Source: Ignavibacteria bacterium (lineage in GTDB: Bacteria > Bacteroidota > Ignavibacteria > Kapaibacteriales > UBA2268). Taken from it: a stretch of DNA of 64,000 nucleotides. Location of the stretch: NCBI GenBank assembly GCA_016844745.1, contig JAERMQ010000018.1, forward strand, positions 15,629 to 79,628, read 5' to 3'. Below the pieces are notes generated by a model that worked only from the letters and a program-made list of their open reading frames with translations, searched no databases and was not told the origin of the DNA. Shown piece by piece: positions 3,328-58,135 of this stretch; position 1 is the stretch's first letter, and each line of letters begins with the position of its first letter. A program made the translations under genes and the position numbers.

Positions 3328-3357
3328 TAAATCAACCATAGGGTTAACCCTATGGTT
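3328..3357. repeat. perfect 28-bp palindrome TCAACCATAGGGTTAACCCTATGGTTGA (terminator-like hairpin); second copy at 51389-51418
   Basis: Read directly in the sequence. Sits just downstream of the yajC stop. The same palindrome recurs between convergent genes near 51.4 kb. Confidence 0.7.
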
Positions 3358-3438
3358 GAAGAGTTTATGCTTGATTTTTTCAAACAAATCTGGTTCTTAA
3401 AAAAAACTCTTCCTTTATTTTTTAGGTAATTATACATC

Positions 3439-4455: not shown

Positions 4456-5652
4456 ATGAATACTATCGAAGAAGCATTAAAAGAACTTGCAGACGGAAAA
4501 ATGATAATCGTAATGGACGACGAAGACCGGGAAAATGAAGGCGATTTAATTATGGCATCCGAACTTTGCACACCGGAAACTGTAAATTTTATGTCAACAA
4601 AAGGTAGAGGACTAATTTGCGTGGCAATTACTACGGAAAGGGCTAAGGAACTGGATTTGGATGTAATGGTACATAATAATTCAGCTATACATGACACTAA
4701 ATTTACTGTTTCGGTTGATTATCTTCATGGAACGAAAACGGGTATTTCTGCTTTTGACCGCGCTGCCACAATTCGCGCTCTTGTTGATAAAGATACCAAA
4801 CCTGAGGATTTAGGACGCCCCGGGCATATTTTTCCTCTTATTGCCGTAGAAGAAGGTGTACTTCGTCGCACCGGTCATACTGAAGCGGCTGCCGACCTTA
4901 TGCGCCTTGCCGGTCTGAAACCTTGTGGTGTTCTTTGCGAAATCATTAAGGATGACGGTGAAATGGCAAGACTACCGGAGTTAATGATATTTGCCATGGA
5001 ATACGGCATGAAAATTATTACGGTAGCTGATTTAATCGCATATAGAAAACGTCGCGAATGTCTTGTTAAATGCGTTGCCACAGCAAACATCCCCAGTTCA
5101 TTCGGTGCCTTTGAAATTAAAGTTTATACTAATATTGTAGATGGCAAAGAGCATGTTGCATTAGTGAAAGGAGTATGGGAATCGGAGGAATCCGTTTTAG
5201 TGCGTGTTCATTCCGAATGTCTTACCGGGGATGTATTCGGTTCATTGCGATGCGATTGTGGCTCTCAACTTCATGCTGCTATGAAAAAAATCGAAAAGGA
5301 AGGCAAAGGGGTTTTGCTATACATGAGACAGGAGGGAAGAGATATTGGCTTAATCAATAAGGTGAAAGCTTATGCATTGCAGGAAAAAGGAATGGATACC
5401 GTTGAAGCGAACCTTGAGTTGGGTTTTGAACCGGACCCGCGGGACTATGGGATCGGAGCTCAAATATTATTCGAATTGGGGGTGAGGAAGATGAAACTTA
5501 TGACAAATAATCCGAAGAAGCGAGTAGGACTCGAAAGCTACGGTTTGGAAGTTACAGAAAGAGTACCGATAGAAGTGGAATCGAATGTCAATAATGCAGA
5601 ATATTTAAAAACAAAAAAATCAAAATTGGGACATTTATTGCATAATTTATAA
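4456..5652 (+). CDS. ribBA: bifunctional 3,4-dihydroxy-2-butanone-4-phosphate synthase / GTP cyclohydrolase II
   Basis: N-terminal 'DDEDRENEGDLIMASE' (RibB) and C-terminal 'RVHSECLTGDVFGSLRCDCGSQL' (RibA zinc site); 398 aa. Confidence 0.95.
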   Translation: MNTIEEALKELADGKMIIVMDDEDRENEGDLIMASELCTPETVNFMSTKGRGLICVAITTERAKELDLDVMVHNNSAIHDTKFTVSVDYLHGTKTGISAFDRAATIRALVDKDTKPEDLGRPGHIFPLIAVEEGVLRRTGHTEAAADLMRLAGLKPCGVLCEIIKDDGEMARLPELMIFAMEYGMKIITVADLIAYRKRRECLVKCVATANIPSSFGAFEIKVYTNIVDGKEHVALVKGVWESEESVLVRVHSECLTGDVFGSLRCDCGSQLHAAMKKIEKEGKGVLLYMRQEGRDIGLINKVKAYALQEKGMDTVEANLELGFEPDPRDYGIGAQILFELGVRKMKLMTNNPKKRVGLESYGLEVTERVPIEVESNVNNAEYLKTKKSKLGHLLHNL

Positions 5653-5687
5653 ATTTTGATTATTTTGCATTTTGTAAGAGGAAAAAA

Positions 5688-5728
5688 TAAAGCCGATGTG
5701 GAAATTGGCTTTATTTTTTTTATTTTTT
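5688..5728 (+). terminator. rho-independent terminator after ribBA
   Basis: Stem AAAGCC...GGCTTT with a 12-nt loop, followed by ATTTTTTTTATTTTTT. Confidence 0.5.
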
Positions 5729-6310: not shown

Positions 6311-6400
6311 TATTTTATTGTCATTCTGAACTTGTTTCAGAATCCAAAATCTTTAAAAATCAAGAAGATAGATTCTGAAACAAGTTCAGAATGACAATTT
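6311..6400. mobile_element. small MITE-like hairpin element (27-bp inverted arms TTGTCATTCTGAACTTGTTTCAGAATC)
   Basis: Near-perfect inverted repeat read directly. Its termini match the AATGTCATTCTGAAC ends of larger elements at 23.6 and 57.9 kb. Confidence 0.6.
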
Positions 6401-6427
6401 TTAGAACTACTCTAAAGGGAGACAGTC

Positions 6428-7583: not shown

Positions 7584-7745
7584 GATTTAATTAAGAATTA
7601 CTAATTACTAATTACAAAATTGGCTGAATTAGGATTTATAGGATTAAAAGATTAAAAATTGTCTGAACTATGATTTATAGGATTAAAGGATTATAGGATT
7701 TAGAATACTATACTTTTTATAAACCCTTTATTCATAATTCATAAT

Positions 7746-8684
7746 TTATAATTGTTTTAACGAACCTTGTACTATTCTCGGAATTGACGAAAAATCTTTG
7801 AAGAATACGCAAATGAAGCCTTTTGAAGAAAAGATTTTTTCAATATCATGCGCCATCCCAAATCCGATTTCAAGAAAAAATGTACCGGTTGGTTTTAATA
7901 ATTCCGGAAAAATATCGGCATATCTTTTATAAAATGTAAGACCATCAAACTCATCGGTAAGCGCTGAACGCGGCTCCCAGTCTTTCACTACTTTATCGAG
8001 AAGAGTATAATCATTTAGATTTATATAAGGTGGATTGGAAATAATTATATCGAAACCAGACTCAGCAGGGAGGTTATTGAGTATATCACAATTTTCAAAA
8101 TTTACATTGCTCAATCCATGAAATGCAGCATTGGATTTTGCAATTTCCAAAGCTGAATCCGAATTATCAATTGCCCGGACAGTAACGGATGGTCTTTCTT
8201 TTGCTATCGTAAGTGCGATACAACCTGAACCGGTGCCAATATCAAGAATTTTAGCAATATCATTTTCGATTGAATCAATTGCAATTTTACATAACAACTC
8301 AGTCTCAGGGCGGGGAATCAACACACCCGGTTTGATTTTGAAATCGTAACCAAGGAAATTTACTTTTCCTAAGATATATTGCAAAGGCTCGCCACTGCAG
8401 CGTCTTTCAGTTAGTTCATAAAAATTTTGCGCTTCTTTCCCGGTTAATATTCTGTCGAATTTGGAATACAACCCGATTTTTTTTAATTGAAGAATGTGGC
8501 ATAGAATTAATTCCGCATTCAGTCTTGGAGATTCAACTTTATTATTGGTTAATTGAATAGTACCCCAATCCAAAAGTTCTTTTATTGAATTACGATGATA
8601 CATTGCAAATTTTAGCTTATTGAATTTATTTATATTTAAGACATTCAGTTTGGAAGGGAATTCCTGCATTCGCTGGAATGACAT
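7746..8684 (-). CDS. prmC: release factor glutamine methyltransferase PrmC (HemK)
   Basis: 'IISNPPYI' NPPY motif and 'DIGTGSGCIA' SAM-binding motif. The true start is likely the internal M before 'YHRNSIKELLDWG'. Confidence 0.85.
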   Translation of the reverse strand: MSFQRMQEFPSKLNVLNINKFNKLKFAMYHRNSIKELLDWGTIQLTNNKVESPRLNAELILCHILQLKKIGLYSKFDRILTGKEAQNFYELTERRCSGEPLQYILGKVNFLGYDFKIKPGVLIPRPETELLCKIAIDSIENDIAKILDIGTGSGCIALTIAKERPSVTVRAIDNSDSALEIAKSNAAFHGLSNVNFENCDILNNLPAESGFDIIISNPPYINLNDYTLLDKVVKDWEPRSALTDEFDGLTFYKRYADIFPELLKPTGTFFLEIGFGMAHDIEKIFSSKGFICVFFKDFSSIPRIVQGSLKQL

Positions 8685-8705: not shown

Positions 8706-8741
8706 ATTTATAATTCGTAATTCGTAATTCGTAATTCGTAA
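8706..8741. repeat. heptanucleotide tandem repeat (TAATTCG) x5
   Basis: Read directly: 'taattcgtaattcgtaattcgtaattcgtaatt', between the prmC 5' end and the tRNA. Confidence 0.8.
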
Positions 8742-8750
8742 TTGATTTTG

Positions 8751-8824
8751 TCGGGATGAGAGGATTTGAACCTCCGTCCCCTTGGTCCCGAACCAAGTGC
8801 GCTACCGGGCTGCGCTACATCCCG
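8751..8824 (-). tRNA. tRNA-Pro (anticodon CGG)
   Basis: The reverse complement folds as a cloverleaf. Acceptor CGGGATG/CATCCCG, D-arm GCGC/GCGC, anticodon stem CTTGG/CCAAG with loop TTCGGGA, T-arm GGAGG-TTCAAAT-CCTCT; 74 nt. Confidence 0.85.
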
Positions 8825-11221: not shown

Positions 11222-12226
11222 TTAGCCTCCTATCTCAATCATGTCATTATTTTCAAAATGAGCTAATTCGCTAACTTCCGGATGATGCAGTTCTTTTCCC
11301 AGCAAATAAATTTTAATCACATTAGAAATTTCAGTATCGGATAGACTGCTATCGAGCAGCTTCTTGATGTCAAGAGATTTATTTTTTAATGAGAATAAGC
11401 AAAGCTTCATTTTTCCTTCGGAGGTGATACGCAAACGGTTGCAATCGCCGCAAAAATGCTCGCTAATCGAAGAAATGAAACCAATTGAATAGTCAGAATC
11501 ATTTACCCTGTAATATTTGGCAACATCATTTGAAGTCCCGTTTAAAGTGAGCTTGTATTGCTTTGAGATTACATCTAACATTTCGATGTAACTTACGAAA
11601 TTATCCTCATTCCATTTGTTCATGCTGAAAGGCATATATTCAATAAAACGAATGGGAATAGTACGTTCAATACCGAATTTAACAAAATCCAACAACTCAC
11701 TAAAATTATTTTGCTTCATAACAACACAATTAATTTTGGGTTTCAGGTTCGGTTCCCTGATAACATAATCAATAGAATCTATTATTTTTCCAAGGTTGTT
11801 ATTACCTGTAATTTTGGTAAAGTTAAGAGCATTTAACGAATCCAGACTTATATTGATACTTGTAAATCCGGTTTTACTAAGAAGCGGGGCTTTTTCCTTT
11901 AGATTCGACCCGTTAGTTGTTATCCCTAACCGGGCATTATAGTTTTTATTTAATTCGTGAAGTTCGGTAACGAGAATATCAAAATCTTTTCTAATCAAAG
12001 GCTCACCGCCGGTCAACCTGATTTTGGTTATACCGTTTTGAAGAAAAATCTTTGTCAAGAGCAAAATTTCATCAACTGATAACTGATTCGTACCGTTCGA
12101 AGGTAAAATTTTATGGACCGGATTGCAATAAACACAGGAGAAATTACAATTATCCGTAATGGATAATCTCAGGTAATCATGCTGTCTGCCGTATTTATCG
12201 ATAAATTTCATATCGTTTTTTATCAC
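11222..12226 (-). CDS. moaA: GTP 3',8-cyclase MoaA (radical SAM)
   Basis: 'CNFSCVYCNP' radical-SAM cluster and 'GGEPLIRKD'; a C-terminal cluster is also present. 334 aa. Confidence 0.9.
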   Translation of the reverse strand: MIKNDMKFIDKYGRQHDYLRLSITDNCNFSCVYCNPVHKILPSNGTNQLSVDEILLLTKIFLQNGITKIRLTGGEPLIRKDFDILVTELHELNKNYNARLGITTNGSNLKEKAPLLSKTGFTSINISLDSLNALNFTKITGNNNLGKIIDSIDYVIREPNLKPKINCVVMKQNNFSELLDFVKFGIERTIPIRFIEYMPFSMNKWNEDNFVSYIEMLDVISKQYKLTLNGTSNDVAKYYRVNDSDYSIGFISSISEHFCGDCNRLRITSEGKMKLCLFSLKNKSLDIKKLLDSSLSDTEISNVIKIYLLGKELHHPEVSELAHFENNDMIEIGG

Positions 12227-12585
12227 TAATCTTTTTTATTTTCTATTACATCATCCACCCAACTTAAGGCAGCCATCATAGAGGGTAATCCAATTGTAGG
12301 AAGCGATAATAATACAGCATGACGAATTTCTTCGGGCGAACAACCTGCTTTCAATGCCTTTCGTGTATGGGAATGAACAGCGCCTTCGAGTCTTGCTCCG
12401 ACCGATATTGAAAGTTTGATTAAAGCCCTTGTTTTGTCATCGAGAGGACCGGCTTTATGAGCTGCATCGCCCATTGCCTCATAAGATTTTGCCACATCGG
12501 GATAATCTTCCGTGAATTTTACATAACGTTTTGGAATAGCCATTATTCGTTTCCTTTTTATTATTAAAAAAGCCCTGTATTGCAT
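12226..12585 (-). CDS. carboxymuconolactone decarboxylase/AhpD-like family protein
   Basis: 119 aa, small all-helical CMD-family pattern ('HTRKALKAGCSPEEIRHAV'). Confidence 0.5.
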   Translation of the reverse strand: MQYRAFLIIKRKRIMAIPKRYVKFTEDYPDVAKSYEAMGDAAHKAGPLDDKTRALIKLSISVGARLEGAVHSHTRKALKAGCSPEEIRHAVLLSLPTIGLPSMMAALSWVDDVIENKKD

Positions 12586-12715
12586 ATAATACAGAGCTGC
12601 GATTGATTCAGTCTATACTCCTTTGCAAATTCGGCAGGCATAGCTGTTTCCGGCTGTACCCTATCGGCTTCAAACCATGTCCGTAGATTTAGGTTGTGAA
12701 GCTCGGAGTTTTATT

Positions 12716-13363
12716 TTAGTTATTACTTATTTTATTATTTATAACCAAATTTAAATTTACAATTATATGATTTAATAATTTTCCTAAATTACAATAAAAT
12801 TCACTTGAAGAATTTTCTATGATTACATTAGCGAAAATTTGAACCCAACTACTAAAATAATTATGATAAAAATTAAATATTATTAAATCAATTAGTTCAG
12901 ACCTATTATAATCACTGATGCTTAAAACTTCATGTTTATTAAAAAATAGGAAATATAAGAATTCTAATTCAGCTATTATATGGTCGGGTAAATCTTTAAA
13001 AGTATTGTTAATTGATAAATCAGCATGGTCATAAATATTCATCACTTGAATTGTTGAATCTCCCATTAATTTACAATCTTCCAAATAATATGAACCATAA
13101 GGAGGCGCAATTACTTTAAAAGGTCCTACAAACAATCTTGCATATTCTACCATTAAATTTTCATTTGGATTTTCAATCAACTGAGATTTCAATTTTTTAA
13201 AAATTTCACCGGTAACAGGTGTGAGTTCCATGAAAGAAATCTCATTTTTTAAAATAAAAATATCGGACAGAAGAAATTCTCTGTTTGGAAATGAGAATAA
13301 ATTCGATAGAACTGAAAATATCAGCTCAATCCTTTTTATTTCGTCAATATTCTTATTCATCAT
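12716..13363 (-). CDS. TorD/DmsD-family redox-enzyme maturation chaperone
   Basis: '[23 protein letters not shown]' is the hallmark of TorD-like chaperones that bind Tat signals of molybdoenzymes. Confidence 0.7.
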
Positions 13364-17057: not shown

Positions 17058-17518
17058 ATACTTACTCCATTTGTAACATTAGATTTATTTATTCCTATTG
17101 TATTTTTAATACTTATCGAACTCTTAGACTTTCTTGCAAAAATTCTTAATTCCTCTGCCTATTCTTTTTGCTAATTATCTTTTTTTATTATATCAAGAAC
17201 ACAAATTATATTACACAAAAAACTTATTGCAAGTTTAATTTTTTTTTTAATTAAAAAAGAAAAAAAAAATTTTTGTAATAATGTGTGGGTATAAATACTT
17301 GCAGAAAGTTTTTCCTGCGGATTCAGAAATCTCCCGAATCAATAAGGGAAGGGATTACTGCATCCTCATAAATGACAGTTTTTAGAACTACCCTTTAAAA
17401 ATTAATTTCAAATATTTTGAGACTTTTTTGCCTTTATTGTGTCTATATAGGTCTGGAATGTGTAAATTTGAAAAAAGTGATTTGGAATATAGATTTTTCA
17501 ACAAACTGAGAAGAAATC

Positions 17519-22125: not shown

Positions 22126-22225
22126 TATTTCTCCATTAACAAATTGTCTGAACCTTGATTTACAAATTGTCTGAACCTTGATTTACCTGATTAAATGATT
22201 AATATAATTTATATTTTTTTAACTC

Positions 22226-22260
22226 AAAATTTAGTAATTAGTAATTAGTAATTAGTAATT
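22226..22260. repeat. heptanucleotide tandem repeat (TAATTAG) x4
   Basis: Read directly in the sequence. Confidence 0.8.
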
Positions 22261-22280
22261 CTTTCATTAACCATTGACCA

Positions 22281-23640: not shown

Positions 23641-23950
23641 CAAAAATTAAGAAGAAAGTCATTCTGAATCCCAAAATAATGTAACTAATAAAAATATGCA
23701 ATAACAAATTCAAGAGAAACCCCCTAACCCCCTTTGAAAAAGGGGGAATTTATTATTCTTTTCTACTTCTATATTCTATTTCCATGTTCTACTTCTATAA
23801 CCGGGGGTTAGGGGGTTTCTCAATGTTGAAATTGTTGCCATTATTTTGAATCAAGAAAAATCTGTCATTGGTAACGAAGTGAAGAATCAATAAGCGATAT
23901 TGGGACTGGATTCTTCACTTCGTTACCAATGACATTCTTCCATATTGTCA
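23641..23950. mobile_element. composite MITE-like palindromic element (AATGTCATTCTGAA terminus + CCCTAACCC/GGGTTAGGG hairpin + GAAGTGAAGAATC nested palindrome)
   Basis: About 85% identical to the element at 57866-58135. Nested inverted repeats read directly. Confidence 0.6.
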
Positions 23951-23994: not shown

Positions 23995-24672
23995 TCACTT
24001 AACAGTCATTTGAATGGAATCTGAAAAACTTCCTTTTTCATTTGAAACCGTACATTTTATAGTTTTCGTTCCAACACAATTCTGTGGTGCAGAATAGGTA
24101 ATTTTCGTATTATCCGATTCATTGACGGTAATATCACCGCAATCGACTACCTTCCAGGCATATTTCAGATTCCCGCCTATTGCATAGCAAACGATATTTG
24201 CTTTTTCGGCAGAGCCGGATTGAATTTCAGTTTTATCAGATTCGATTGTAATTATCTCCGGCTGCTTAATTACTTCCAGTATTGTTACCGTTATGCTTTT
24301 AGAAACAGAACCTTTGCTGTTCGATACGGTGCAGGTGATTATTTTATCACCAACACAACAAGCAGCACCTGTGTAACTTACTTTTGACCGCTCATTATTC
24401 AAAGGTACCAAATCGCCCAAATCGACTTGCCAGACAAATTTCAGATTGCCTCCCGAAGCATTACATGTAATTATTGCTTCGTCCATACCACCATATAATA
24501 TCTGGGTTTTATTGGCATCAATACTTTTTATGGATGGTGCGGTTTCAGGCTCGTTACCCGTAGGACCGTCGTTTTTTTGGCATCCGGATAATATTACCAT
24601 AAATAATATTATTTGTAAGTTCAGTAATATTTGTTTTAATTTCATAATCTTTCTCATTTTTATTATCATCAT
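23995..24672 (-). CDS. lipoprotein with two tandem Ig-like repeat domains
   Basis: 'LSGCQKN' lipobox. Internal duplication ('ITCNASGGNLKFVWQV' / 'IVCYAIGGNLKYAWKV'). Confidence 0.4.
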   Translation of the reverse strand: MMIIKMRKIMKLKQILLNLQIILFMVILSGCQKNDGPTGNEPETAPSIKSIDANKTQILYGGMDEAIITCNASGGNLKFVWQVDLGDLVPLNNERSKVSYTGAACCVGDKIITCTVSNSKGSVSKSITVTILEVIKQPEIITIESDKTEIQSGSAEKANIVCYAIGGNLKYAWKVVDCGDITVNESDNTKITYSAPQNCVGTKTIKCTVSNEKGSFSDSIQMTVK

Positions 24673-24699: not shown

Positions 24700-24895
24700 A
24701 AGATGATTGAGCTAAAATTTTTTTCGATATTAAAAGAATGACAATCATCCGTTCAATCAAGATGATTGAACTACTAATTTATTAATATTAAAAGTAGGAC
24801 AATCATCCCTGATTGTCAAATCATCCCTGATTGTCAAATCATCCCTGATTGTCAAATCATCCCTGATTGTCAAATCATCCCTGATTGAAATTAGT
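24700..24895. repeat. tandem repeat array: 2 x ~55-bp units containing palindrome TCAATCAAGATGATTGA, then 4.5 x 18-bp GTCAAATCATCCCTGATT
   Basis: Read directly. Lies between two minus-strand genes. Confidence 0.8.
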
Positions 24896-25651
24896 CTATT
24901 TTATTATATAAAAACTCATGGAAACCGGCATTCCGTCAAACTCCGTTAAGATATAATAAACGCCGGATGATAAATCGCTTATGTCCAGATTAAATTCATT
25001 CGAAGTTATTGCAATATCTTTGCAAAGACTGCCATCCAATGCTAAAATTCTAAAATATTTCGGTAATGATGCAGATAACCTAACTGCAAGTTCACGATTA
25101 TTACGAACATCAATCGATATTGGAATCATTCTGTTTTCGGTTACATCGGAAGTTTTCGCAAGGAAGAAATAGGCGCCTTTTGCTAATTCGGATACTTGAA
25201 TTACAACATTGTTCTCATCCAATGTATGCAATAAATTTCCAGGCCAGCAACCGCCCGCACCTTGCGAACCTAATTGGTCTATATCAAAGACTTTGCCGCA
25301 ATTATTGCATCTTAAATTAGTGCCGCTTTGAGAGTACCCCTTATGATAAGGGTAACATACGTCACAAGCATTGAAACATGATTTGATATCGCCATTCGAA
25401 GCTTTTACCAAAATGTATTCCAAATCCTTGTATTGAGAGGGGGATGTTTTGTAAGCATATGAATAATGTTTTGCTGTTGTCGTTACATCCGATGCAGGTT
25501 GAGTGGCTACTTGGGCTATTGCTTTATTAGATTGTCCCAAGAGAGTCATTATTAGCAGAACAAAAATGGTTCTGCTAATAGCATTAAATAGAGCATTTTT
25601 AGTGTGTATGGTCAAAAATATTTGACCAAATATTGTAGGTGTATCTTTCAT
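24896..25651 (-). CDS. Cys-rich secreted protein with T9SS C-terminal domain
   Basis: CxxC pairs ('CFNACDVCYP', 'CNNCGKVF') and C-terminal 'GVYYILTEFDGMPVSMSFYIIK'. Confidence 0.4.
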   Translation of the reverse strand: MKDTPTIFGQIFLTIHTKNALFNAISRTIFVLLIMTLLGQSNKAIAQVATQPASDVTTTAKHYSYAYKTSPSQYKDLEYILVKASNGDIKSCFNACDVCYPYHKGYSQSGTNLRCNNCGKVFDIDQLGSQGAGGCWPGNLLHTLDENNVVIQVSELAKGAYFFLAKTSDVTENRMIPISIDVRNNRELAVRLSASLPKYFRILALDGSLCKDIAITSNEFNLDISDLSSGVYYILTEFDGMPVSMSFYIIK

Positions 25652-27324: not shown

Positions 27325-27378
27325 TTATTTCCTTATTATTTTGGTTTCTTACATTAATTTTTTTCATTATATAATTGG

Positions 27379-27482
27379 AGAAACCCCCTAACCCGGTTAT
27401 AGAAGTAGAACATAGAAGTAGAACATAGAAGTAGAAAAAAGAATAAGTTCCCCCTTTTTCAAAGGGGGTTAGGGGGTTTTTC
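27379..27482. repeat. CCCTAACCC...GGGTTAGGG hairpin repeat (inverted copy of the 23714-23822 module)
   Basis: The reverse complement of the 23.7-kb copy aligns base for base, including the internal GAAGTAGAACATA tandem motif. Confidence 0.7.
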
Positions 27483-27537: not shown

Positions 27538-28914
27538 TTATTTATTAACTACTCTGCCGACCATCATTTCAATCTCAGCGATTGCCATTTGTTCGTCGGC
27601 TTGTGCCATATAATAATTCATTGATTGCATCAGTAACATTCTGTTTGCATCGATAATCATATTTATACTGGTTTGATTGTTTTGATATTGAGAAATTTGC
27701 GAACTTCTTGCCTGCTCGTAAAGTGGGATTACCTTCCCGGAATAAAGTATAATCAGTTCCCGTGACGTTTTCAACTTTAGCAAAGCTGTTTTAAGCATGA
27801 CATTCATTTCCCTCTGCATATCGTTCTTTTCCGCTTCAATGCTTTGAATATTAGCCAGCAGTTCCTGTTCTTTAGCTTCGTATTTTTCTTTAGTCCAGGG
27901 AGCAAATGGCAGTGTAATCGAAGCCATCAGGCTGTATCCGTAATCCGAACTCCCATCCCATTTACCCATGGATGAACCTGATTTAGCGGTCATGAGCATA
28001 CCCTGAGGCATTCTCATCACCATTGCCTGGAGCATCAGGTCAGGAATTTTGTCCTTGTTATTTGCAATAATCTCGAATTTATTCATTTCTGCCATCGTGT
28101 TCATTTTCTTAAGTGATGGATTATTGCCTGCTAAAATATTTTCCAATTCTTCCTGCTTATACTCAATATGAATGTTCGGTAATGCCTTGGATACCGATAA
28201 TTCCGGCGAATTTAAATCCCTGCCTAACAGCTTATTCATTTTAAATATTTCAGCTTCTTTCTGGTTGGATAAGATTAAAAGCTGGGTTTCATTGAATGCT
28301 ATTTCGCTTTTAATTGTGAAAATATCAGCCGGAGCGCTTTTATTTATTTCAAAAAGATTCGTCAATGAAGTCAGAAGCTGATTCAGCAATACGATGCCTT
28401 CTTGTTGAACCTCGATTTTACGTTCCAACATCCATATATTAAAGAAAATCATTTTAATATTACCTGTCAGATTAACCTTGTAAACATCAATGTTATCCCT
28501 GCTGATTTTAATATTTACTTTTTCTGCATCGGTCATAGCGCCGATTTTGCCTCCCAAATGGAACATCTGGGAAAAAGTTATATTCTGCGAAATAGGCTCA
28601 TTCAGCCAGTTGAGAGTATTGAATGGAACTTGTGATAATTCGAAACCTACGGTCGGAGCAGGATATGAATTTATTGATTTTGCGCGTTCCTCCGATGCTC
28701 TTACCTTTAAATCCAAAGACTTTAAATATGGATTATTGACCAGAGCCTCCTTTATTAGTGAATCCACAGATTGGGAAAAGACATTATTGAAACAGAAAAA
28801 GCATAAAATAATGAGCAAATTCCTAAAAATAGTTTTAACTTTAAAATTCGTAATTCGTAATTCGTAATTCGTAATTAAAAATTTGTAATTCATAATTGAT
28901 AATTCATAATTCAT
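27538..28914 (-). CDS. outer-membrane efflux protein (TolC/CusC-like)
   Basis: TolC-like two-repeat helical/beta architecture. The start was chosen at the ATG 5 nt after the cusA stop. The N-terminal 25 aa are encoded by heptamer repeats. Confidence 0.65.
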   Translation of the reverse strand: MNYELSIMNYKFLITNYELRITNFKVKTIFRNLLIILCFFCFNNVFSQSVDSLIKEALVNNPYLKSLDLKVRASEERAKSINSYPAPTVGFELSQVPFNTLNWLNEPISQNITFSQMFHLGGKIGAMTDAEKVNIKISRDNIDVYKVNLTGNIKMIFFNIWMLERKIEVQQEGIVLLNQLLTSLTNLFEINKSAPADIFTIKSEIAFNETQLLILSNQKEAEIFKMNKLLGRDLNSPELSVSKALPNIHIEYKQEELENILAGNNPSLKKMNTMAEMNKFEIIANNKDKIPDLMLQAMVMRMPQGMLMTAKSGSSMGKWDGSSDYGYSLMASITLPFAPWTKEKYEAKEQELLANIQSIEAEKNDMQREMNVMLKTALLKLKTSRELIILYSGKVIPLYEQARSSQISQYQNNQTSINMIIDANRMLLMQSMNYYMAQADEQMAIAEIEMMVGRVVNK

Positions 28915-28925
28915 AATTTCTATTC
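28845..28925. repeat. heptanucleotide tandem repeats (TAATTCG x4 then TAATTCA/TGATAAT variants)
   Basis: Read directly. Overlaps the first ~25 codons of the TolC-like ORF. Confidence 0.8.
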
Positions 28926-33539: not shown

Positions 33540-34610
33540 CTATTCGATTTTTAAGGGTAAATACATAGATACTTCTGCTCCTGATTCAATGTTCTTAGCT
33601 TCGACTTTCCCATTATGATATTCCATAATTAATCCTACTATAGCCAGGGAAAGTCCTAATCCCTCAGTATGGTGAAGAATATCATTAACTGTAAATAACT
33701 CAAATATCTGAGGTAAAACTTCTTCTGAGAAACCATTTCCTTTATCCTGAAAACAGAGAATAAAGTAATTACCTTCAATAGTTAAAATCACTTTAATTTC
33801 ACTTCCTTTGTCTGAAAATTTAATAGCATTATTCAAAATACTTTCAATTGAAAAAGCAATCAGGTTTTCATCTATTTCAACATAAATATTTTCAGCGATA
33901 AAATTTTTAGAGATATTTAAAATATTCGAACCATCCAACTCATTGAAATGTATAGTAACGTTATTAACAAAATCATCAAGATTAATTTTAACGGGTGATA
34001 AATTATGTTCCCTGAGTTTTAGTTTAGTAACCATAAGTGCTGTCTCTGAAAATTTGTTTAATCTTTTTGCCGAGTCAAATAAATGCTGTGCAATTTCTTT
34101 ATTATTTGTATTTTCAAGTTCAGTTAGAAGTATATTTGCGAGCCCCATAATACCATTAAGTGGTGTTTTTAATTCATGAGAAATTAAACTTAATATATCG
34201 CTTTTTGATTTACTTAGATGTTCAAGTTTCAAATTCGCATTAGTTAATGCTTCCGTTCTATCAATTACTTTTTGTTCGAGTGTTTTATTAAGTTCATTTA
34301 ATGTATTTTCCGATGATTTTAATTTATATTGCGTTCTATATAAAAATACCATACTGAATAAAAAAGAAATAATCAGAATATATAGTATTCTATGATAAAT
34401 TAGCATTTCAGGTATATTAAAAATTAATAAATCCAAGAAATTCATGTTTTGTGACATTTTGTCCTCAACCATCATCGGTTCAAGGATTGTTGCTAAAATC
34501 CAAACTATAGCCGAAACTAAAAGAATGATGGCTATCGTATTTTCTCTTATTTTTTTAAATTTCATTTTATTTCCTTTTCCTTGAGTTAAGCGTTTTTCTT
34601 GAAGTTCCAC
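33540..34610 (-). CDS. sensor histidine kinase
   Basis: N-terminal TMs, HisKA 'SHELKTPLNGIMG', and an HATPase_c region. Confidence 0.8.
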   Translation of the reverse strand: MELQEKRLTQGKGNKMKFKKIRENTIAIILLVSAIVWILATILEPMMVEDKMSQNMNFLDLLIFNIPEMLIYHRILYILIISFLFSMVFLYRTQYKLKSSENTLNELNKTLEQKVIDRTEALTNANLKLEHLSKSKSDILSLISHELKTPLNGIMGLANILLTELENTNNKEIAQHLFDSAKRLNKFSETALMVTKLKLREHNLSPVKINLDDFVNNVTIHFNELDGSNILNISKNFIAENIYVEIDENLIAFSIESILNNAIKFSDKGSEIKVILTIEGNYFILCFQDKGNGFSEEVLPQIFELFTVNDILHHTEGLGLSLAIVGLIMEYHNGKVEAKNIESGAEVSMYLPLKIE

Positions 34611-38675: not shown

Positions 38676-38711
38676 AGGCTTATTTACTTTTTATTTCTAA
38701 AGTGGTAATTT

Positions 38712-38812
38712 TTTTTAAAAACCCTCACCCTAACCCTCTCCCAGAGTGAGAGGGAATTATAAATTATTTTCCCTCTCCCTTTGGGAGAGGGTTAGGGTGA
38801 GGGTTCTATATT
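38712..38812. repeat. CCCTAACCC-family hairpin variant with covarying arms (CCCTCACCCTAACCCTCTCCC...GGGAGAGGGTTAGGGTGAGGG)
   Basis: Read directly; the arm substitutions are mirrored on the opposite arm. Confidence 0.7.
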
Positions 38813-38827
38813 TAAATTGATTCCTTT

Positions 38828-40377: not shown

Positions 40378-40425
40378 GGTTTTTCCTTTAATATTAAAAA
40401 AGTTATTTAAATTTTTATACCCTCG

Positions 40426-40481
40426 TGTCAAGAGTTTCTCTTGACATCCTTTTTTCGAGTCAAGAGGAACTCTTGACTCGA
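40426..40481. promoter_or_regulatory. tandem palindromes TGTCAAGAG-TTT-CTCTTGACA and GAGTCAAGAG-GAA-CTCTTGACTC (candidate operator); paralogous copy at 42235-42290
   Basis: Read directly. Both copies sit ~50-100 bp upstream of minus-strand redox genes. Confidence 0.5.
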
Positions 40482-42189: not shown

Positions 42190-42353
42190 GACTTTGTCCT
42201 CAAATTTAATAATTATTTTAAAGGTTTTTACCTTGTGTCAAGAGTTCCTCTTGACACTTATTGATTAGTCAAGAGCAGCACTTAACTCGATGATAACAGG
42301 TAAATCGCCCTACATTAAGGTTTTATTTTTAAAAGGATATTTTGCTAAGAATT

Positions 42354-44758: not shown

Positions 44759-44984
44759 TTTAAAATTCCTTTAAATGTTATAAAAATTTATTTCAAATTA
44801 TGGCGCCAAGTAAATTATACACATGAACTGTGCCAAAGATGTAAATAATTGCATTATAAGGAATTAACGAAATTTTTTGAAATTGATAAATATTGAAAAA
44901 CGACAATTTTGTCGTTAAATAAAGCAAATTTGTTGTAAATATTAAATTTATTTTCAGGAGAAAAGAATTAAGCCTTATTTCAGT

Positions 44985-45125
44985 ATCTCAAACCAATTTT
45001 CTGGTCGTTCGACTGATGCTTCAATAGCCTTTTTTAATTTATCCTTGAATTTCCAGCATGTCATCTGCCGCAGTGAAAGCCGTCTTGCAAACTCATAAGA
45101 AGAAATTTCTGAATCCGAAGTATTT
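44985..45125 (-). mobile_element. remnant of IS1595-family transposase N-terminal region (direct repeat of 49660-49800)
   Basis: About 100 bp are ~99% identical to the 3' part of the 49638-50051 ORF. Confidence 0.7.
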
Positions 45126-45143: not shown

Positions 45144-48100
45144 CTATTTCCTGAAATAATTTGTCTTAAAATACAGAACAAATGAAGATATGAAAAATGT
45201 TAGTATAAAGATTGAAATAAGAATCAGAATATCAATCTCAAGGACAAAAGGAAAATATCCATGCTGCAGCAGCTTTCCGGATTTATCAAAAGTGGGGAAG
45301 TAGCAAGGATAAATCATATTGTAATAGGGGACAATAAACTTATGAAATGGGGATTCAAAATCGACGGTTTTTGAAACCAGATTTACCATAGATTCCAATG
45401 ACCATCGAGATATCGTACAATCCGATATAACCCTCAGGAAATGGTTCATTGAACCAATATGCTTAAAAATACCGGCAAAGATTATCTGAGGAATTAAAAT
45501 TAATGGTAAAAAAGAAATTGCAAATTCAATACTGCTTGCTAAAGAAGAAATACAAAGCCCTATTCCTCCTGCTATAACTGATGTAAGGAGAAGAATTAAA
45601 AAAATATAAATAATATCAGCGGGAAGCATTGGAATAAATAAAAAAAGAACAATTAAAAAAGTTATGATTTGCAGAACCGAAATAATGACTAATGAAACAA
45701 ATTTCGAGCTTATATAATTCATAACCTTGAGTGTATATCTATGTTCCCTGATGAAAATAGCTCTTTCAATCACAACATCTTTTACAGAGTTAGTCATACC
45801 TATCCAAATAAAAGATAAAATCATAATAAACAAAAGGTAGAGCAATTTCTGGGCATGCTCTTTATAACCTGTATCTCCGGTGAAGATGATTTTTTTCTGA
45901 TATGAACCATCGAACCATGAGTATTTCTTATTCTCGACTGTATATTGATATTTTTTAATTTGATTGAAAAATTTATTTTTATCAAATATAGGATTCGTGA
46001 AAGCCAGCACCGAAGACTTTCCGAATAATTTGTATTGCCTGAATAATGAGTCATCCTCTTGAGATTTTTTTCTTCTGTCAGGGAGTATTTTTTCCGTCCA
46101 TAATTTTACTTTCTGGGAATCTTCCAGGGCGTTCCAATCATTGACCGAAACTTGCTTATCGGGGTAATTCAAAATATAATAGAAGCTATTTGTTTTGTTT
46201 TGCGGGGAAAGTTTCATTAAATCAATTAACTTTTCCTTGCCAAGTTGCTTCTCGGAGATTACTAATTTATAATTTCCTGCTTTGATTGGAAAGTAGAGTT
46301 CATTGCCTGATTCCAGTTCCTGTTTGGATATTTGATAAGGTCCGATAACAGAATAATAATTTGAGTCGGGATTGTCGGTCGCCGAAGATTGAGAATATAA
46401 AAACAGGGTTTTTGAAGTCAGGTTCCCGATTTTAATATCTTTGCTGAAAGGCGGCAGATACCTTGAGGTTGATGGTCTGGAATAATTTTCAAGTCTTACA
46501 AATTCTTCTTCCGGCTTAAGGTCGGCGAACCGGCTGCCGTCCTGAATAATTCCGGAAAAAATCATACCTAAGAATAGAGCTATAATTGGAGCCTGAAATA
46601 TCAACAGGAATAATGTAATGATATTATTGAATTTCAACTTAAAATTTCTGAAAATCAAAGTTTTAATTTGGGTAATATTCGAAAATTTTTCAAAAACCGG
46701 TTTTACGATTTGAGCCGCTAAATTTGCAATCGATTGAGCTAATTTCTGGTGCGGATGATGAATATAAAACTCATAAGATTCGGATTCAAGGTACTGTTTT
46801 TTCCAATATTCCGGTGGCTGCGATTCCAATGCTTCCAAAATATAAACAGCAGGATTCATATTTGCATCATATTTAATATTGGAATTTTTTTCAAAAAAAT
46901 CTACCGAACGTTTCACAGAGCCAAAATATGCAATTTCACCTTTTTTTGTCAGGATTAGTATTTTATGGAATTTGCTGAAGATTTTTTTCGAAGGTTGGTG
47001 TATAGTTAAAAAAATTGTATTCCCTACATTACTGATTTTAGTAAGCAGATTGATTAACTTTTCGGAATCGGCAGAAGAAAGTCCGGAAGTAGGTTCGTCT
47101 AAAAATAAAATCGATGGGTCGCTCAATAGCTCTATAGCCAAGTTCACTCTTTTTCTTTGACCGCCCGATAAAGCCCCCCGCTTATTCATATCGCCAATTT
47201 TTTTATTTTTTATTTGAAATGAATAAGTGCCGTCTTCGTGCAATTCAGAGAGGTCAAGGCTGATTAGAACATTATCGATAACAGATTCAATATTATGGGT
47301 AGTCAGGTGTGGTAATCTTAGTTTAGCAGCATATATCAGGCACTGTTCAACAGTTAAATCAGGAAAGAGGATATCGTCCTGAGGCAGATAGGCGGTCGAA
47401 AACCTGAAATGGTAGGGATTTTTTGTAATATTGATGTTATTATACAATAAATTCCCACTAATAGATTTATCATTGATTTTATCCACACCTGATAGAATTT
47501 TCAACAAAGTTGATTTGCCTGCTCCACTTGGACCCATTATTCCAACTATTTCTCCTGCGCCGACAGAGAGCGAAATATTATTTAATAATGGAATCGTATG
47601 CCATGAAAAAGGAAATTTGAAATTTTTGATTTTCTTTGAAATATTTAATGCGTCTAACCTGATTTTTCCTTTTATGTGTTGAATATGGATTATCGCTTTT
47701 TCTTCTTTAAGATTGATGGTCAAAATAAAATCACCGAATATCACCGGTTGATTGTAAGAAATCTCGGCTTCCTTTATTTTTTTATTATCAAGGAAAGTTC
47801 CGTAATAAGAATCGCAATCTTCAATACGAAAATTATCGTTATCGAGTTTTCTTATTTGAATATGTTTGTAAGAAATTTTTTCACTAATCAGCACAATATC
47901 ACAATTGGACTGCCCGATAGTTACTTCTTCTTTGCTGAAATCATCGAAAACAAATTCAAGTGGAAATTTCTCAGTTACAAAAAAAGTGTCGTTATCTTTA
48001 AGGAAATCCGGAATAAGGCTTAAATCTAATTTCACATCTTCGATAACTATACTGTCGTTTTCATCTATTAATTTATAATCACCTAAGGAAAGTTTGAATC

Positions 48101-48653
48101 CGTTGATAAATATTGGAACTGGGCTTCTATAACTATTGACAAACCGGGGATAGCTACAGAAAAAATTCCCTTTGCAATTAATAATAGATGCATAAATTTC
48201 TTTTTTATTTAGTTCGGGAAGAATAATTTCGGAATCCTGGGAATTACCAACTTTGAATTCTTCCGATATATCGAAATCAATTATTAAATTGATTTTAACA
48301 TCTAAATTAAAAAGAGGAGCAATTTTAGGATGATTAAAGTCTAAAATGATATCTTTTATTTTGACCCAATCGGCAATAGAAATGATTTCCTTTTTAGTAA
48401 CAATCCTTCTATTGGTTTCAATATCATGGGAATTTTCGTCTAAATTAATAAGTTCATATTGTTGACTTTCAGGGTTATACGTTATAACGGCAGCAAATTC
48501 GGGGATATCCTGCCTGTTAATTTTAATATTACAATAACCTGAACTTCCAATCCAGGTGGTAAAAGTCTCATTGAAATATTGCAGTTTACAATGAGGACAT
48601 TTTTTACTTACGATATGCTCAATTGTTTCATGGCATTTCGGACAAACAAACAT
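45144..48653 (-). CDS. zinc-ribbon + FHA-domain + ABC ATPase + ABC-2 permease fusion (Rv1747-like FHA-regulated ABC exporter)
   Basis: 'CPKCH...CPHC' ribbon; canonical FHA ('GQSNCDIVL...HIQI...GTFLDN'); Walker A 'GPSGAGKST', 'LSGGQRKR' and 'LFLDEPTSGL'; C-terminal 6-TM ABC-2 domain. Confidence 0.75.
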   Translation of the reverse strand: MFVCPKCHETIEHIVSKKCPHCKLQYFNETFTTWIGSSGYCNIKINRQDIPEFAAVITYNPESQQYELINLDENSHDIETNRRIVTKKEIISIADWVKIKDIILDFNHPKIAPLFNLDVKINLIIDFDISEEFKVGNSQDSEIILPELNKKEIYASIINCKGNFFCSYPRFVNSYRSPVPIFINGFKLSLGDYKLIDENDSIVIEDVKLDLSLIPDFLKDNDTFFVTEKFPLEFVFDDFSKEEVTIGQSNCDIVLISEKISYKHIQIRKLDNDNFRIEDCDSYYGTFLDNKKIKEAEISYNQPVIFGDFILTINLKEEKAIIHIQHIKGKIRLDALNISKKIKNFKFPFSWHTIPLLNNISLSVGAGEIVGIMGPSGAGKSTLLKILSGVDKINDKSISGNLLYNNINITKNPYHFRFSTAYLPQDDILFPDLTVEQCLIYAAKLRLPHLTTHNIESVIDNVLISLDLSELHEDGTYSFQIKNKKIGDMNKRGALSGGQRKRVNLAIELLSDPSILFLDEPTSGLSSADSEKLINLLTKISNVGNTIFLTIHQPSKKIFSKFHKILILTKKGEIAYFGSVKRSVDFFEKNSNIKYDANMNPAVYILEALESQPPEYWKKQYLESESYEFYIHHPHQKLAQSIANLAAQIVKPVFEKFSNITQIKTLIFRNFKLKFNNIITLFLLIFQAPIIALFLGMIFSGIIQDGSRFADLKPEEEFVRLENYSRPSTSRYLPPFSKDIKIGNLTSKTLFLYSQSSATDNPDSNYYSVIGPYQISKQELESGNELYFPIKAGNYKLVISEKQLGKEKLIDLMKLSPQNKTNSFYYILNYPDKQVSVNDWNALEDSQKVKLWTEKILPDRRKKSQEDDSLFRQYKLFGKSSVLAFTNPIFDKNKFFNQIKKYQYTVENKKYSWFDGSYQKKIIFTGDTGYKEHAQKLLYLLFIMILSFIWIGMTNSVKDVVIERAIFIREHRYTLKVMNYISSKFVSLVIISVLQIITFLIVLFLFIPMLPADIIYIFLILLLTSVIAGGIGLCISSLASSIEFAISFLPLILIPQIIFAGIFKHIGSMNHFLRVISDCTISRWSLESMVNLVSKTVDFESPFHKFIVPYYNMIYPCYFPTFDKSGKLLQHGYFPFVLEIDILILISIFILTFFISSFVLYFKTNYFRK

Positions 48654-48676
48654 AGACCTCTTTTGTTATTTAACCT

Positions 48677-49456: not shown

Positions 49457-49637
49457 AACGTTAAATCTTTTTTATGTTCATAATAATTTAATTTTCAAAA
49501 TCATAAAATTACTTTTAATTAAAACTACAAAATAATATTATAAAATGCAAAAAAAATGAAGTTTCTGTTTACACTTAGTTGCTGGGTATTCAAAAATGTT
49601 ATTTCAAGGAATTGGATTGAGAGAATTGAAGACAAGT

Positions 49638-50051: not shown

Positions 50052-50089
50052 TGCAATTCAAAAATACGAATATAATCTTTAATTAAACA

Positions 50090-50185
50090 AGAAAAACCCC
50101 CTAACCCCGGTTTTAGTAGTAGAACAGGGAAGTAGAAATAGAAGTAGAAAAATTCCCACTTTTTCAAAGGCGGTTAGGGATTTTT
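50090..50185. repeat. CCCTAACCC...GGTTAGGG hairpin repeat copy
   Basis: Read directly; shares the internal GTAGAA tandem motif. Confidence 0.7.
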
Positions 50186-50303
50186 CTTGTTTAATAATTT
50201 CAATGATAAAAAAATATTTACAATAAAAGTGATACTTATACGATTTAATAATTAACAAATATGTAATTTTGAAAAATATTTATTTGATAAATGAAAGGAA
50301 GTA

Positions 50304-51212: not shown

Positions 51213-51300
51213 CTGAAAATTGTCTTTCGTAAGCGAAGTGAAGAATCCGGGAACCGCATTGGGACTGGATTCTTCACTTCGTTCAGAATGACATTCTTCT
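51213..51300. repeat. MITE-family nested palindrome (GAAGTGAAGAATCC...GGATTCTTCACTTCG + TTCAGAATGACATTC terminus)
   Basis: Read directly; homologous to 23870-23950. Confidence 0.65.
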
Positions 51301-54705: not shown

Positions 54706-54788
54706 ATTTAGTTAAATATTGAAGTAAATATGGTTTTCACACAGCCTAATTCACAGGTATGACAATTTTTAGAACATCCCAATAATTC

Positions 54789-57701: not shown

Positions 57702-57865
57702 AGAAAAAATTTTAAATGATATGTTTAGCTTACTATCATTAGAACCGGAAATAATACAATTTCCGGTTCTTTGTTTTTCTAAAGCTATAGTTAATTTAAT
57801 TAATGCTGGGGCTGTCTCATAAGTATAAATAGTTGTCTTTACTGCGAAAGAGGTTTCTGAAAAGT

Positions 57866-58135
57866 CAGGAAGAATGTCATTCTGAACTCTAAAATAATGG
57901 AATTAATAAAAATACACAATGACAAAATCAAGAGAAACCCCCTAACCCCCTTTGAAAAAGGGGGAATTGATTATCCCCCCTTTTTCAAAGGGGGTTAGGG
58001 GGTTTCTCAATGTTGAAGTAGTTACCATTATTTTGTATCAAGAAAAATCTGTCATTGGTAACTTGATTCAGAATCCATAAACCGCACTGGGAGTGGATTC
58101 TGAATCAAGTTCTGAATGACATTACATAATTTTTT
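57866..58135. mobile_element. composite MITE-like element with ~15-bp terminal inverted repeats AATGTCATTCTGAAC
   Basis: Left end 'gaatgtcattctgaac', right end 'gttctgaatgacatt'. Internal CCCTAACCC hairpin plus a nested palindrome. Homologous to 23641-23950. Confidence 0.65.

Follow-up and report, generated by a model that had tools for sequence, protein, structure and literature searches.

TGTC-tagged hairpin repeats in an Ignavibacteria genome as probable members of the Ssn-related motif class

Background

Chenal et al. (2025, PMC11893778) have described a repeat system built around a very small nuclease. Their Ssn-related motifs (SRM), or NTS (the oriented dRS3 form, CGTCATTCCCGCGMAVGCGGGAATCYRG), flank ssnA, a 94-aa single-domain GIY-YIG gene (cd10448). 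SsnA recognises the folded repeat solely in ssDNA, with no binding of RNA, and it cuts the strand a few nucleotides 5' of the tag. The positions critical for SsnA are the trinucleotide that precedes the palindrome and the C that follows it, and the C is the most critical of these for binding. The ssDNA-specific binding and cleavage are reported there for the Neisseria and Wolbachia pairs only. The authors liken the NTS-ssnA-NTS layout to an insertion sequence, and they report that in meningococci the Ssn system restricts transformation by NTS-bearing DNA.

Earlier, Di Nocera et al. (2013, PMC3733652) described a superfamily of CGTC-tagged REPs in which the tag is often TGTC, the stems of 8-9 bp begin with A-T pairs, the loops have 4-5 nt, and a CCA tail follows. 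The hosts named in their account are Proteobacteria, Chlorobi, Bacteroidetes, Spirochaetes and Thermotogae. Neisseria dRS3 and Rickettsia RPE-4 and RPE-6 are counted among these repeats, and the superfamily, in their words, "apparently lacks a dedicated transposase".

This work deals with a family of repeats in a 64-kb stretch of Ignavibacteria DNA, which we call the window. We believe, with a probability of roughly 0.8, that the termini of these repeats are ssDNA hairpin repeats of the SRM/NTS-like class, in other words TGTC-tagged REPs, arranged as REPIN-like pairs and mosaics. The family is real, yet it represents a local, AT-rich form of repeats already known and not a new transposon, MITE or IS.

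The repeat unit

The termini are built from a unit of 26-27 nt. A position-weight matrix made from 328 units gives the core T-GTCAYYCTGARC-N7-ARRAT-C, with sharp edges and random flanks. The unit consists of an unpaired 5' tag, T-GTC, a stem that opens with AT, a loop, and a C directly after the stem. All intact window units carry TGTC directly before the stem. In the 328 units elsewhere T stands at position -1 in 90% and nothing further out is conserved; the GTCA itself was preset by the search pattern. The C directly 3' of the palindrome (...AGAAT-C) is present in every intact window unit and in 72% of the units collected loosely elsewhere.

There are two classes of unit. Class 2 has the form ATTCTGAA-CTTGW-TTCAGAAT, an ordinary 8-bp stem with a 5-nt loop. 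A full unit of this class, TGTC-ATTCTGAA-CTTGT-TTCAGAAT-CCA, has the tag, the 8 bp, the 5-nt loop and the CCA tail, and folds at -5.3 kcal/mol. Class 1 reads ATTCT-GA-AC-GAA-GT-GA-AGAAT in the window and ATYCT-GA-RC-GNA-GY-GA-AGRAT in general. It has only 5 canonical pairs and a nominal loop of 11 nt, and with nearest-neighbour DNA parameters it gives no stable fold (-0.8 kcal/mol, z = 0.4).

The stem covaries all the same. Positions 4-22, 5-21 and 10-16 change together, with T-A in 226 units and C-G in 134 at 5-21, and A-T in 221 and G-C in 151 at 10-16. Of 554 units, 267 have G·A at 8-18 and 294 have A·G at 9-17, the remainder being G-C or A-T, and the central triplet occurs as GAA, GCA, GGA or GTA. 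The work of Hirao, Yoshizawa and colleagues on d(GCGNAGC) reportedly found that tandem sheared G·A pairs capped by a C-GNA-G triloop make an unusually stable structure specific to DNA. Given the covariation and this literature, class 1 most likely forms a DNA mini-hairpin that combines a GNA triloop with tandem G·A pairs. Nearest-neighbour parameters do not see such a structure, which would explain the weak energy computed for class 1. Candidate Ssn substrates among the unit sequences are TGTCATTCTGAACTTGTTTCAGAATCC and TGTCATTCTGAACGAAGTGAAGAATCC, the second of which would form the mini-hairpin.

Units are not confined to the window. A scan of one genome per species with the pattern GATTCT-N7-GTTCWGAATGACA found at least 118 loci where, by our own estimate, about 8 are expected by chance. 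The phyla among the matches listed include Saccharibacteria, Chloroflexi, Bacteroidota, Planctomycetes, Spirochaetes, Clostridia, Proteobacteria and Ignavibacteriae/Kapabacteria, besides others, and the cultured hosts among them include Pedobacter, Mucilaginibacter and Gaetbulibacter. The class 1 26-mer of the window has copies identical at 26 of 26 positions across many of the phyla listed. Outside the window the unit also stands singly and in arrays, again across phyla. The G+C content of a locus correlates weakly with G/C at the variable stem positions (rho = 0.15), a comparison that is confounded by the way loci were ascertained.

Elements of the window

The first-pass annotation of this DNA described two homologous elements, one of them bounded by inverted termini of ~15 bp, together with several shorter derivatives. 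We confirm that E1 (23642-23939) and E2 (57860-58125) are homologous, with 88-94% identity across their shared blocks. In a pairwise alignment the two become similar ~15 nt to the left of the left tag, at ~23642 in E1 and ~57860 in E2, and remain so up to AATGACATT, at ~23939 in E1 and ~58125 in E2; the sequence beyond both limits is unrelated. The limits of homology fall at most about 15 nt beyond the two outward-facing TGTCA/TGACA tags. The termini of E2 are conserved and inverted as described, but each of them is the 5' half of a 26-nt hairpin unit. The conserved terminus is also longer than had been described, since ...AAGAAGAA precedes TGTCA in four copies. AATGTCATTCTGAAC with at most 2 mismatches is found 6 times in the window against 0.34 expected, and not one of 100 shuffles gave 6.

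Neither E1 nor E2 is one uniform element. In each of them two unrelated hairpin families are combined in a mosaic, one being the 26-nt unit and the other module B (GAGAAACCCCCTAACCCCC-TTTGAAAAA-GGGGG...), whose type is CCCTCACCCTAACCCTCTCCC...GGGAGAGGG. The features of the window are as follows.

6319..6396: stand-alone REPIN-like pair; unit(+) 6319-6344, 26-nt spacer, unit(-) 6371-6396; both units TGTCATTCTGAACTTGTTTCAGAATC, class 2
17372..17392, minus strand: relic, tag and outer flank only (GTTCTAAAAACTGTCAT on the bottom strand), without an intact hairpin
23642..23939: composite mosaic E1, by homology to E2; in order, outer half-unit(+), A/T-rich linker, module B long form, linker, inverted unit pair
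23655-23669, plus strand: outer half-unit of E1, tag AGTCATTCTGAAT
23714..23821: module B, long form nested in E1, with a TTCTAC/TTCTAT-rich insert
23863..23934: unit pair inside E1; unit(+) 23863-23888 (TGTCATTGGTAACGAAGTGAAGAATC), 20-nt spacer, unit(-) 23909-23934
27378..27482: module B, long form, free-standing, in the orientation opposite to the E1 copy (106 nt, 77%; 92%)
50085..50187: module B, free-standing and more diverged
51221..51293: REPIN-like pair whose left unit (51221-51247, TGTCTTTCGTAAGCGAAGTGAAGAATC) has decayed
51268-51293, minus strand: intact right unit of that pair, TGTCATTCTGAACGAAGTGAAGAATC, class 1
54759..54778, minus strand: relic, tag and outer flank only (GTTCTAAAAATTGTCAT on the bottom strand)
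57860..58125: composite mosaic E2, by homology to E1; in order, outer half-unit(+), linker, module B short form, linker, inverted unit pair
57875-57887, plus strand: outer half-unit of E2, TGTCATTCTGAAC
57932..58008: module B, short form nested in E2, GAGAAACCCCCTAACCCCCTTTGAAAAAGGGGGAAT and its inverse (36-nt arms, 97%)
58050..58121: unit pair inside E2; unit(+) 58050-58075 (TGTCATTGGTAACTTGATTCAGAATC, tail CCA), spacer, unit(-) 58096-58121
58096-58121, minus strand: second unit of the E2 pair, TGTCATTCAGAACTTGATTCAGAATC on the bottom strand; the units of this pair are class 2

The pairs fold strongly as DNA. The hairpin at 23861-23936 has -28.9 kcal/mol (z = -13.3), that at 58048-58123 has -23.0 kcal/mol (z = -9), and that at 6317-6398, with a stem of 28 bp, has -29.8 kcal/mol (z = -11). 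The one at 51220-51295, with its decayed left arm, still has -20.8 kcal/mol (z = -6.8). The short form of module B at 57932..58008 folds at -41.8 kcal/mol (z = -11), and the whole of E2 as ssDNA at -73.4 kcal/mol (z = -14.5). The units of the E1 pair are class 1 with a GAA loop and the GGT variant in the 5' half, and their arms are complementary at 26 of 26 positions. Variants of the form TGTCATTGGTAAC... occur in the window at 23863(+), 23934(-) and 58050(+), and this variant disrupts the stem within the unit in both E1 and E2. The spacers of the inverted pairs measure 18-26 nt, and in three pairs the spacer sequence itself is conserved. The right unit of the 51221..51293 pair matches units from many phyla at 26 of 26 positions.

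Every copy lies between ORFs, and the earlier picture of a modular, non-coding family of nested palindromes with conserved inverted termini stands. The shorter derivatives fared less evenly. The palindromes at 6317-6398 and 51220-51295 are real and share termini, but those placed at 17330-17398 and 54760-54786 are relics at best; they have only ~17-20 nt (ATGACARTTTTTAGAAC, tag and outer flank) in common with the right edge of the 6317 palindrome. The relic at 17372..17392 was recognised by eye against 6390-6411. The 51221..51293 pair sits between convergent genes, and the 6319..6396 pair lies downstream of greA and 30 nt upstream of the ORF at 6428. The greA product is identical to a protein of an Ignavibacteria MAG at NCBI. 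An exact-protein look-up of it gave just a 1.5-kb Logan contig that ends inside the 6317 palindrome, and the nearest relative has 73% identity.

The inner pairs of E1 and E2 differ in a telling way. Seven loop nucleotides have been swapped on both arms simultaneously (GAAGTGA/TCACTTC vs TTGATTC/GAATCAA), in surroundings that are 90-100% identical. This argues for an exchange of modules or a templated correction from arm to arm, and not for point mutation. E1 and E2 are BIME-like mosaics, formed of an outer half-unit and an inner pair around a second, G/C-tract hairpin, with a later duplication of the block.

An associated GIY-YIG gene

From the at least 118 unit loci we clustered 1228 neighbouring ORFs. 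The sole specific recurrent neighbour among the listed loci is a GIY-YIG ORF of ~95-105 aa, found at 8 of 118 and always abutting units. The units that adjoin it are identical or nearly so at all eight (L001, L009, L033, L043, L068, L075, L080 and L114). The remaining recurrent clusters among the listed loci are generic paralogues such as ABC ATPases, SDRs/short-chain dehydrogenases and response regulators. The unit-adjoining proteins have a single GIY-YIG domain and match PF01541 only. The layout is clearest at L114, where a unit(+) at 5320-5344 is followed by the gene at 5356-5673 and a unit(-) at 5685-5709; the E2 unit is identical to these flanking units at 25 of 26 positions. Pedobacter loci have arrays of units with both intact and broken copies of the gene. 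In metagenomes the 26-mers are also a source of short, spurious ORFs and their peptides; L043 has one such case, ...RFFTAFRMTT....

The association holds in the other direction as well. A reverse search seeded by the GIY-YIG protein alone returned 580 metagenomic relatives, of which the best 80 were kept. At 26 of these 80 loci a strict unit is found no more than 150 bp from the gene. Judged by eye, most of the remaining loci carry variants that keep the tag and have stems that covary, for example GTCATCCCGAGC...CGAGGGAC, GTCATTCCGAAC...CGGAATC and GTCATGCTGAGCG...CGAAGCATC, and some variant units at the GIY-YIG loci have an additional hairpin within the loop. Tagged hairpins were counted with a generic GTC(A/G) detector around the 65 metagenomic genes that have at least 200 nt on either side. 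A tagged hairpin is found upstream of 49 (75%), downstream of 48, and on both sides of 43 (66%), and 31 of the 65 (48%) have the full arrangement unit(+)-gene-unit(-). Near the gene there are 5.7 tagged hairpins per kb; further away the figure is 0.60, and in shuffled sequence it is 0.19.

The protein also leads to Neisseria. In a tblastn search of a plasmid collection a unit-associated GIY-YIG protein matched N. gonorrhoeae at 46% identity (E = 4e-16), at one site in each of two chromosomes that had both been filed as plasmids. The match is a 93-aa ORF (ssnA) that lies amid 7-8 canonical NTS repeats, and a pairwise BLASTP comparison of this ORF with the L114 protein gives E = 8e-26. At another locus, L039, 75 nt separate a unit of the window type from a near-canonical NTS (TGTCATTCCCGCGAAAGCGGGAATC). 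The association with the gene and the homology to an NTS-embedded gonococcal ORF lead us to identify the units with the Ssn-related motifs of PMC11893778, which are in turn the CGTC/TGTC-tagged REPs of PMC3733652. The analysis demonstrates what the unit is and how sharply it is bounded, that covariation supports its fold, that it occurs in many phyla, and that it is specifically associated, in both directions of search, with ssnA-homologous GIY-YIG genes of ~95 aa.

A six-frame HMM search of the 64-kb window found no GIY-YIG/ssn ORF. When the GIY-YIG profile was compared with PDB and NCBIfam it found only distant UPF0213 structures and, below threshold, a model of a group I intron endonuclease, with no Ssn entry. 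In our literature search we found no direct link of GIY-YIG to REP or MITE, and the literal unit sequence appeared in primers only. The specific sequence of the unit was likewise not found in the main text of PMC3733652.

The published search string for SRM, HGTCWYN(0-2)YYVSBRHN(0-5)WNVSBRGN(0-2)RNCYNB (PMC11893778), has no match in the window. Over 841 kb of unit-rich loci it has 7 matches against 3 in shuffles, and over the 230 kb around the GIY-YIG genes of the 80 loci it has 0. The reason is that the string requires G/C at positions of the stem where the present units have A/T. Since the published consensus is not matched, membership in SRM rests on architecture and on the association with the gene. 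Judged on the published search string, this branch lies outside the published consensus, and class 1 does so above all.

Alternative explanations

The rival explanation that survives best holds that these are RNA-level elements, be they terminators, mRNA stabilisers or sRNAs, and that selection for a role in the transcript has made them similar. We consider this improbable. In its favour, the hairpins are strong, several elements lie just upstream or downstream of genes, sub-hairpins of module B with T-rich sequence after them were called terminator-like, ATTTTT follows the 6317 pair, and parts of the REP literature describe secondary effects on transcripts in other bacteria. However, the unit pairs were not called terminators, the gene upstream of E2 has its true terminator at 57741-57770, beyond the element, and the elements occur in both orientations and also between convergent genes. 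When the four elements were scanned for promoters and terminators, the unit pairs yielded no more than shuffled sequence would. With Rfam 15 the elements have only sub-threshold matches to generic miRNA hairpins; a Moco riboswitch and a tRNA alone pass the gathering threshold in the window, and neither with that nor with an E-value threshold does any family cover the elements. The idea of divergent rho-independent terminators with a chance similarity, which had been named as the way to overturn the first reading, does not work either, as the unit pairs have neither a T-tract nor a terminator call. The conserved nucleotides point elsewhere. The unpaired tag and the C after the stem are those that SsnA needs, and SsnA as described in PMC11893778 does not bind RNA, while the GNA triloop and the tandem G·A pairs suggest a structure of DNA. 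Side effects on transcripts are possible alongside the main explanation. We also considered ATGACAATTTTTAGAAC as a sigma-70-like promoter and rejected it, since its three copies have no consistent -10 element.

The first-pass annotation read the family as MITEs from an IS such as IS1595. On this explanation the elements are classical MITEs, internally deleted IS derivatives (IS1595-like, for example) that a DDE transposase moves in trans by way of 15-bp TIRs. The inverted termini do bound E2 and the short palindromes, and the elements are small, non-coding, intergenic and present in multiple copies. A MITE of this kind should have come with target-site duplications, which had been proposed as a check, but they are absent from all four complete copies: the flanks of 6319-6396, 23642-23939, 51221-51293 and 57860-58125 share at most a 2-nt AT, and that in one copy. 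No segment in the window is IS-sized and has these ends, all (+)/(-) tag pairs being less than 300 bp apart, and the window has no transposase gene with these termini or between units. The terminus, moreover, is a self-contained hairpin of 26 nt, and across phyla it is also found on its own or in arrays. A search for a cognate transposase with the same termini had been proposed, and the family does have a gene-carrying counterpart in other genomes, but this encodes a ~95-aa GIY-YIG nuclease of the Ssn type and not a transposase; the 1228 ORFs near listed units include no recurrent transposase family, only GIY-YIG. On these grounds we think a MITE origin very unlikely.

That the units are REP/REPIN elements moved by a RAYT (Y1, IS200/IS605-like) transposase is equally hard to credit: the architecture is the same, in that a small tagged hairpin forms inverted doublets with a spacer, target duplications are lacking and the elements cluster into mosaics, but the tag is TGTC and not GTAG, no RAYT is flanked by CGTC/TGTC repeats in the account of Di Nocera et al. 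(PMC3733652), and the listed neighbours of units include no Y1-transposase cluster, the gene enclosed by units being GIY-YIG.

Proposed mechanism and significance

We suggest that an Ssn nuclease encoded outside the window would act on the Ignavibacteria units when their DNA is single-stranded, as it may be while it is replicated, repaired or taken up. On this view the inverted pairs, like the mosaics E1 and E2, would be gene-less derivatives of the unit-gene-unit arrangement. Their copies may have spread or been homogenised through nicking of ssDNA together with recombination or templated repair, and not through DDE transposition. Recombination or templated repair begun at a nick would account for both the missing target duplications and the concerted loop swaps on two arms.

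A bolder proposal, which we offer tentatively and regard as possible but rather doubtful, is that the AT-rich GTCAYYCTGARC-N7-ARRATC units make up a distinct, uncatalogued class of Ssn specificity, one that would read a d(C-GNA-G) mini-hairpin on sheared G·A pairs and not a Watson-Crick stem. The unit(+)-ssn-unit(-) cassettes and the gene-less pairs and mosaics might then be the autonomous and non-autonomous forms of a mobile element with the 95-aa GIY-YIG protein as its "transposase", and the identical 26-mers might reflect its recent exchange among more than 8 phyla.

Placing the Ignavibacteria repeats in the recently defined Ssn/SRM system removes a false lead. The published SRM string misses an AT-rich branch that is very widespread and includes all of the best 80 metagenomic relatives of the nuclease, and so published counts of SRM-bearing genomes are probably too low. 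Class 1 offers a structural hypothesis for how a 95-aa nuclease could read ssDNA, namely through a GNA triloop and tandem G·A pairs. In practical terms, the 26-mers are a recurrent cause of assembly breaks. We believe the interest of the family lies in this blind spot of the published motif, in the mini-hairpin hypothesis for class 1, and in the identity of the 26-mer across phyla.

Comparison with known systems

The Correia/NEMIS and RUP MITEs resemble the window elements in being small, non-coding, intergenic, bounded by inverted repeats and able to form long hairpins. They differ in having target-site duplications and IS-derived ends for DDE transposases, neither of which is seen here.

REPIN/BIME elements (Bertels and Rainey 2011; Nunvar 2010), so far as those accounts describe them, come closer. 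They too form inverted tagged doublets and mosaics without target duplications, and they too have a single small nuclease-type gene between repeats. There, however, the tag is GTAG and the gene encodes a Y1 HUH transposase, whereas here the tag is TGTC and the gene is GIY-YIG. REPIN sequences are also described as lineage-specific, in contrast to the present 26-mer, which is identical across phyla.

The CGTC-tagged REPs, as PMC3733652 describes them, share the TGTC tag, the head-to-head and tail-to-tail dimers, hosts among Chlorobi and Bacteroidetes, and the lack of a dedicated transposase. The class 2 units at 6319-6347 and 58050-58078 fit the published description of stem, loop and CCA tail exactly. 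Class 1 has the tag and the AT-first stem of that description, but differs in its 5 canonical pairs and 11-nt nominal loop.

The closest likeness is to SRM/NTS. The window units differ from them in their AT-rich stem (ATTCTGAA... against ATTCCCGCG...), in the prominence of class 1, with its predicted GNA triloop and tandem G·A pairs, and in being joined with a second hairpin family in mosaics of ~270-300 bp, in a window from which the ssn gene is absent. What they share with the SRM/NTS of PMC11893778 is an unpaired (H)GTC tag before an AT-first palindrome with a C directly after it, a length of 20-50 nt, an intergenic position, hundreds of copies and frequent inverted pairs. As with SRM/NTS, units flank ~95-aa single-domain GIY-YIG genes in the order repeat-gene-repeat, and the proteins are homologous to the NTS-embedded gonococcal ORF. 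The rates of flanking, 75% on one side and 66% on both here, are comparable to the 71% and 42% given in PMC11893778.

A second hairpin family in the window

The composite elements at 23642-23939 and 57860-58125 carry, besides the 26-nt TGTC-tagged hairpin unit, a second hairpin repeat that we call module B. It is built of a C-tract-TAA-C-tract unit followed by a small hairpin, and the units come in inverted doubles (for instance GAGAAACCCCCTAACCCCCTTTGAAAAAGGGGG..., AAACCCTCACCCTAACCCTCTCCCAGAGTGAGAGGG... and GAACCCCTCCCTAACCCTCCCCGAAGGGGAGG...). In its long form one inner half-hairpin is replaced by a degenerate insert.

Module B in the window
27378-27482, 50085-50187, 38707-38818, 54617-54708: module B
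23714-23821, 57932-58008: nested copies
23750-23802, 27396-27445, 50110-50150: degenerate ATAGAAGTAGAAC-like short tandem insert of the long form

Similarly built units are present in Chloroflexi, Dehalococcoidia, Anaerolineae and other loci (L008, L034 with four, L066, L078, L083, L086, L139 and L045, all collected from other genomes or metagenomes), so module B looks like another cross-phylum family of tagged hairpins.

The tagged unit in other genomes

At 23863, 23934 and 58050 in the window, the 5' half of the unit has a variant form, TGTCATTGGTAAC, which disrupts the intra-unit stem. Because this form recurs in two other AT-rich genomes (L045, 6589-6670; L071, near 188-213), it is not a private mutation of the window.

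Elsewhere the units adjoin ssn genes, which encode a small GIY-YIG nuclease. On a Planktothrix agardhii plasmid (L201, NZ_LR882964.1, 17347-20613), GTCATTCTGAGTGAAACGAAGAATC units accompany an Ssn-like GIY-YIG gene whose product is 68% identical to the L001 protein; this gene is flanked by an MmeI-type restriction-modification gene and the DISARM gene drmA, a defence-island context. Beside other ssn genes (L043, 3401-3790; L080) the annotated N- or C-terminal extensions are translated units, as in MSLFTRFFTAFRMTT... and ...LWKPLDSETSSE, and the units are therefore one way in which gene calls acquire spurious peptide tails.

The palindrome at 6317-6398 evidently also breaks short-read assemblies, since the sole other assembly with the greA gene upstream of it, a 1507-bp Logan contig from SRR13434397 (L119), terminates within it.

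Other repeats and RNA features

Further features of the window
12602-12720 (-): Moco/tungsten riboswitch scoring 80 bits, with ORF 12226-12585 downstream
8751-8824 (-): tRNA gene
40398-40446, 42208-42256; weaker copy 34556-34604: inverted motif GTGTCAAGAGTTYCTCTTGACA, recurring upstream of genes on the minus strand
44958-45109, 49621-49772: 152-nt direct duplicate, copies 88% identical
7593-7618, 7730-7753, 8706-8745, 22238-22263, 28846-28925: heptamer tandem runs (AATTCGT, AATTAGT, ATTCATA) in several intergenic regions
24801-24890: 18-bp unit AATCATCCCTGATTGTCA, five tandem copies
3328-3359, 51392-51423: 32-nt perfect-type palindrome AAATCAACCATAGGGTTAACCCTATGGTTGA, two copies, 94% complementary
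7616-7693, 22135-22201: 39-nt repeat AAAATTGTCTGAAC..GATTTA..GATTA, tandem pairs at two loci

The GTGTCAAGAGTTYCTCTTGACA motif may be an operator-like site. The 152-nt duplicate brackets the genes at 45144-49456, and ORF 49638-50051 overlaps one of the copies with its 3' part. The AATCATCCCTGATTGTCA array lies between ORF 24896-25651(-) and ORF 23995-24672(-), upstream of the latter's start. The AAATCAACCATAGGGTTAACCCTATGGTTGA palindrome is a third intergenic repeat, with one copy 100 nt from the inverted unit pair at 51221-51293. In the 39-nt repeat the TTGTCTGAAC core resembles the 5' half of the tagged unit, but without the ATT.
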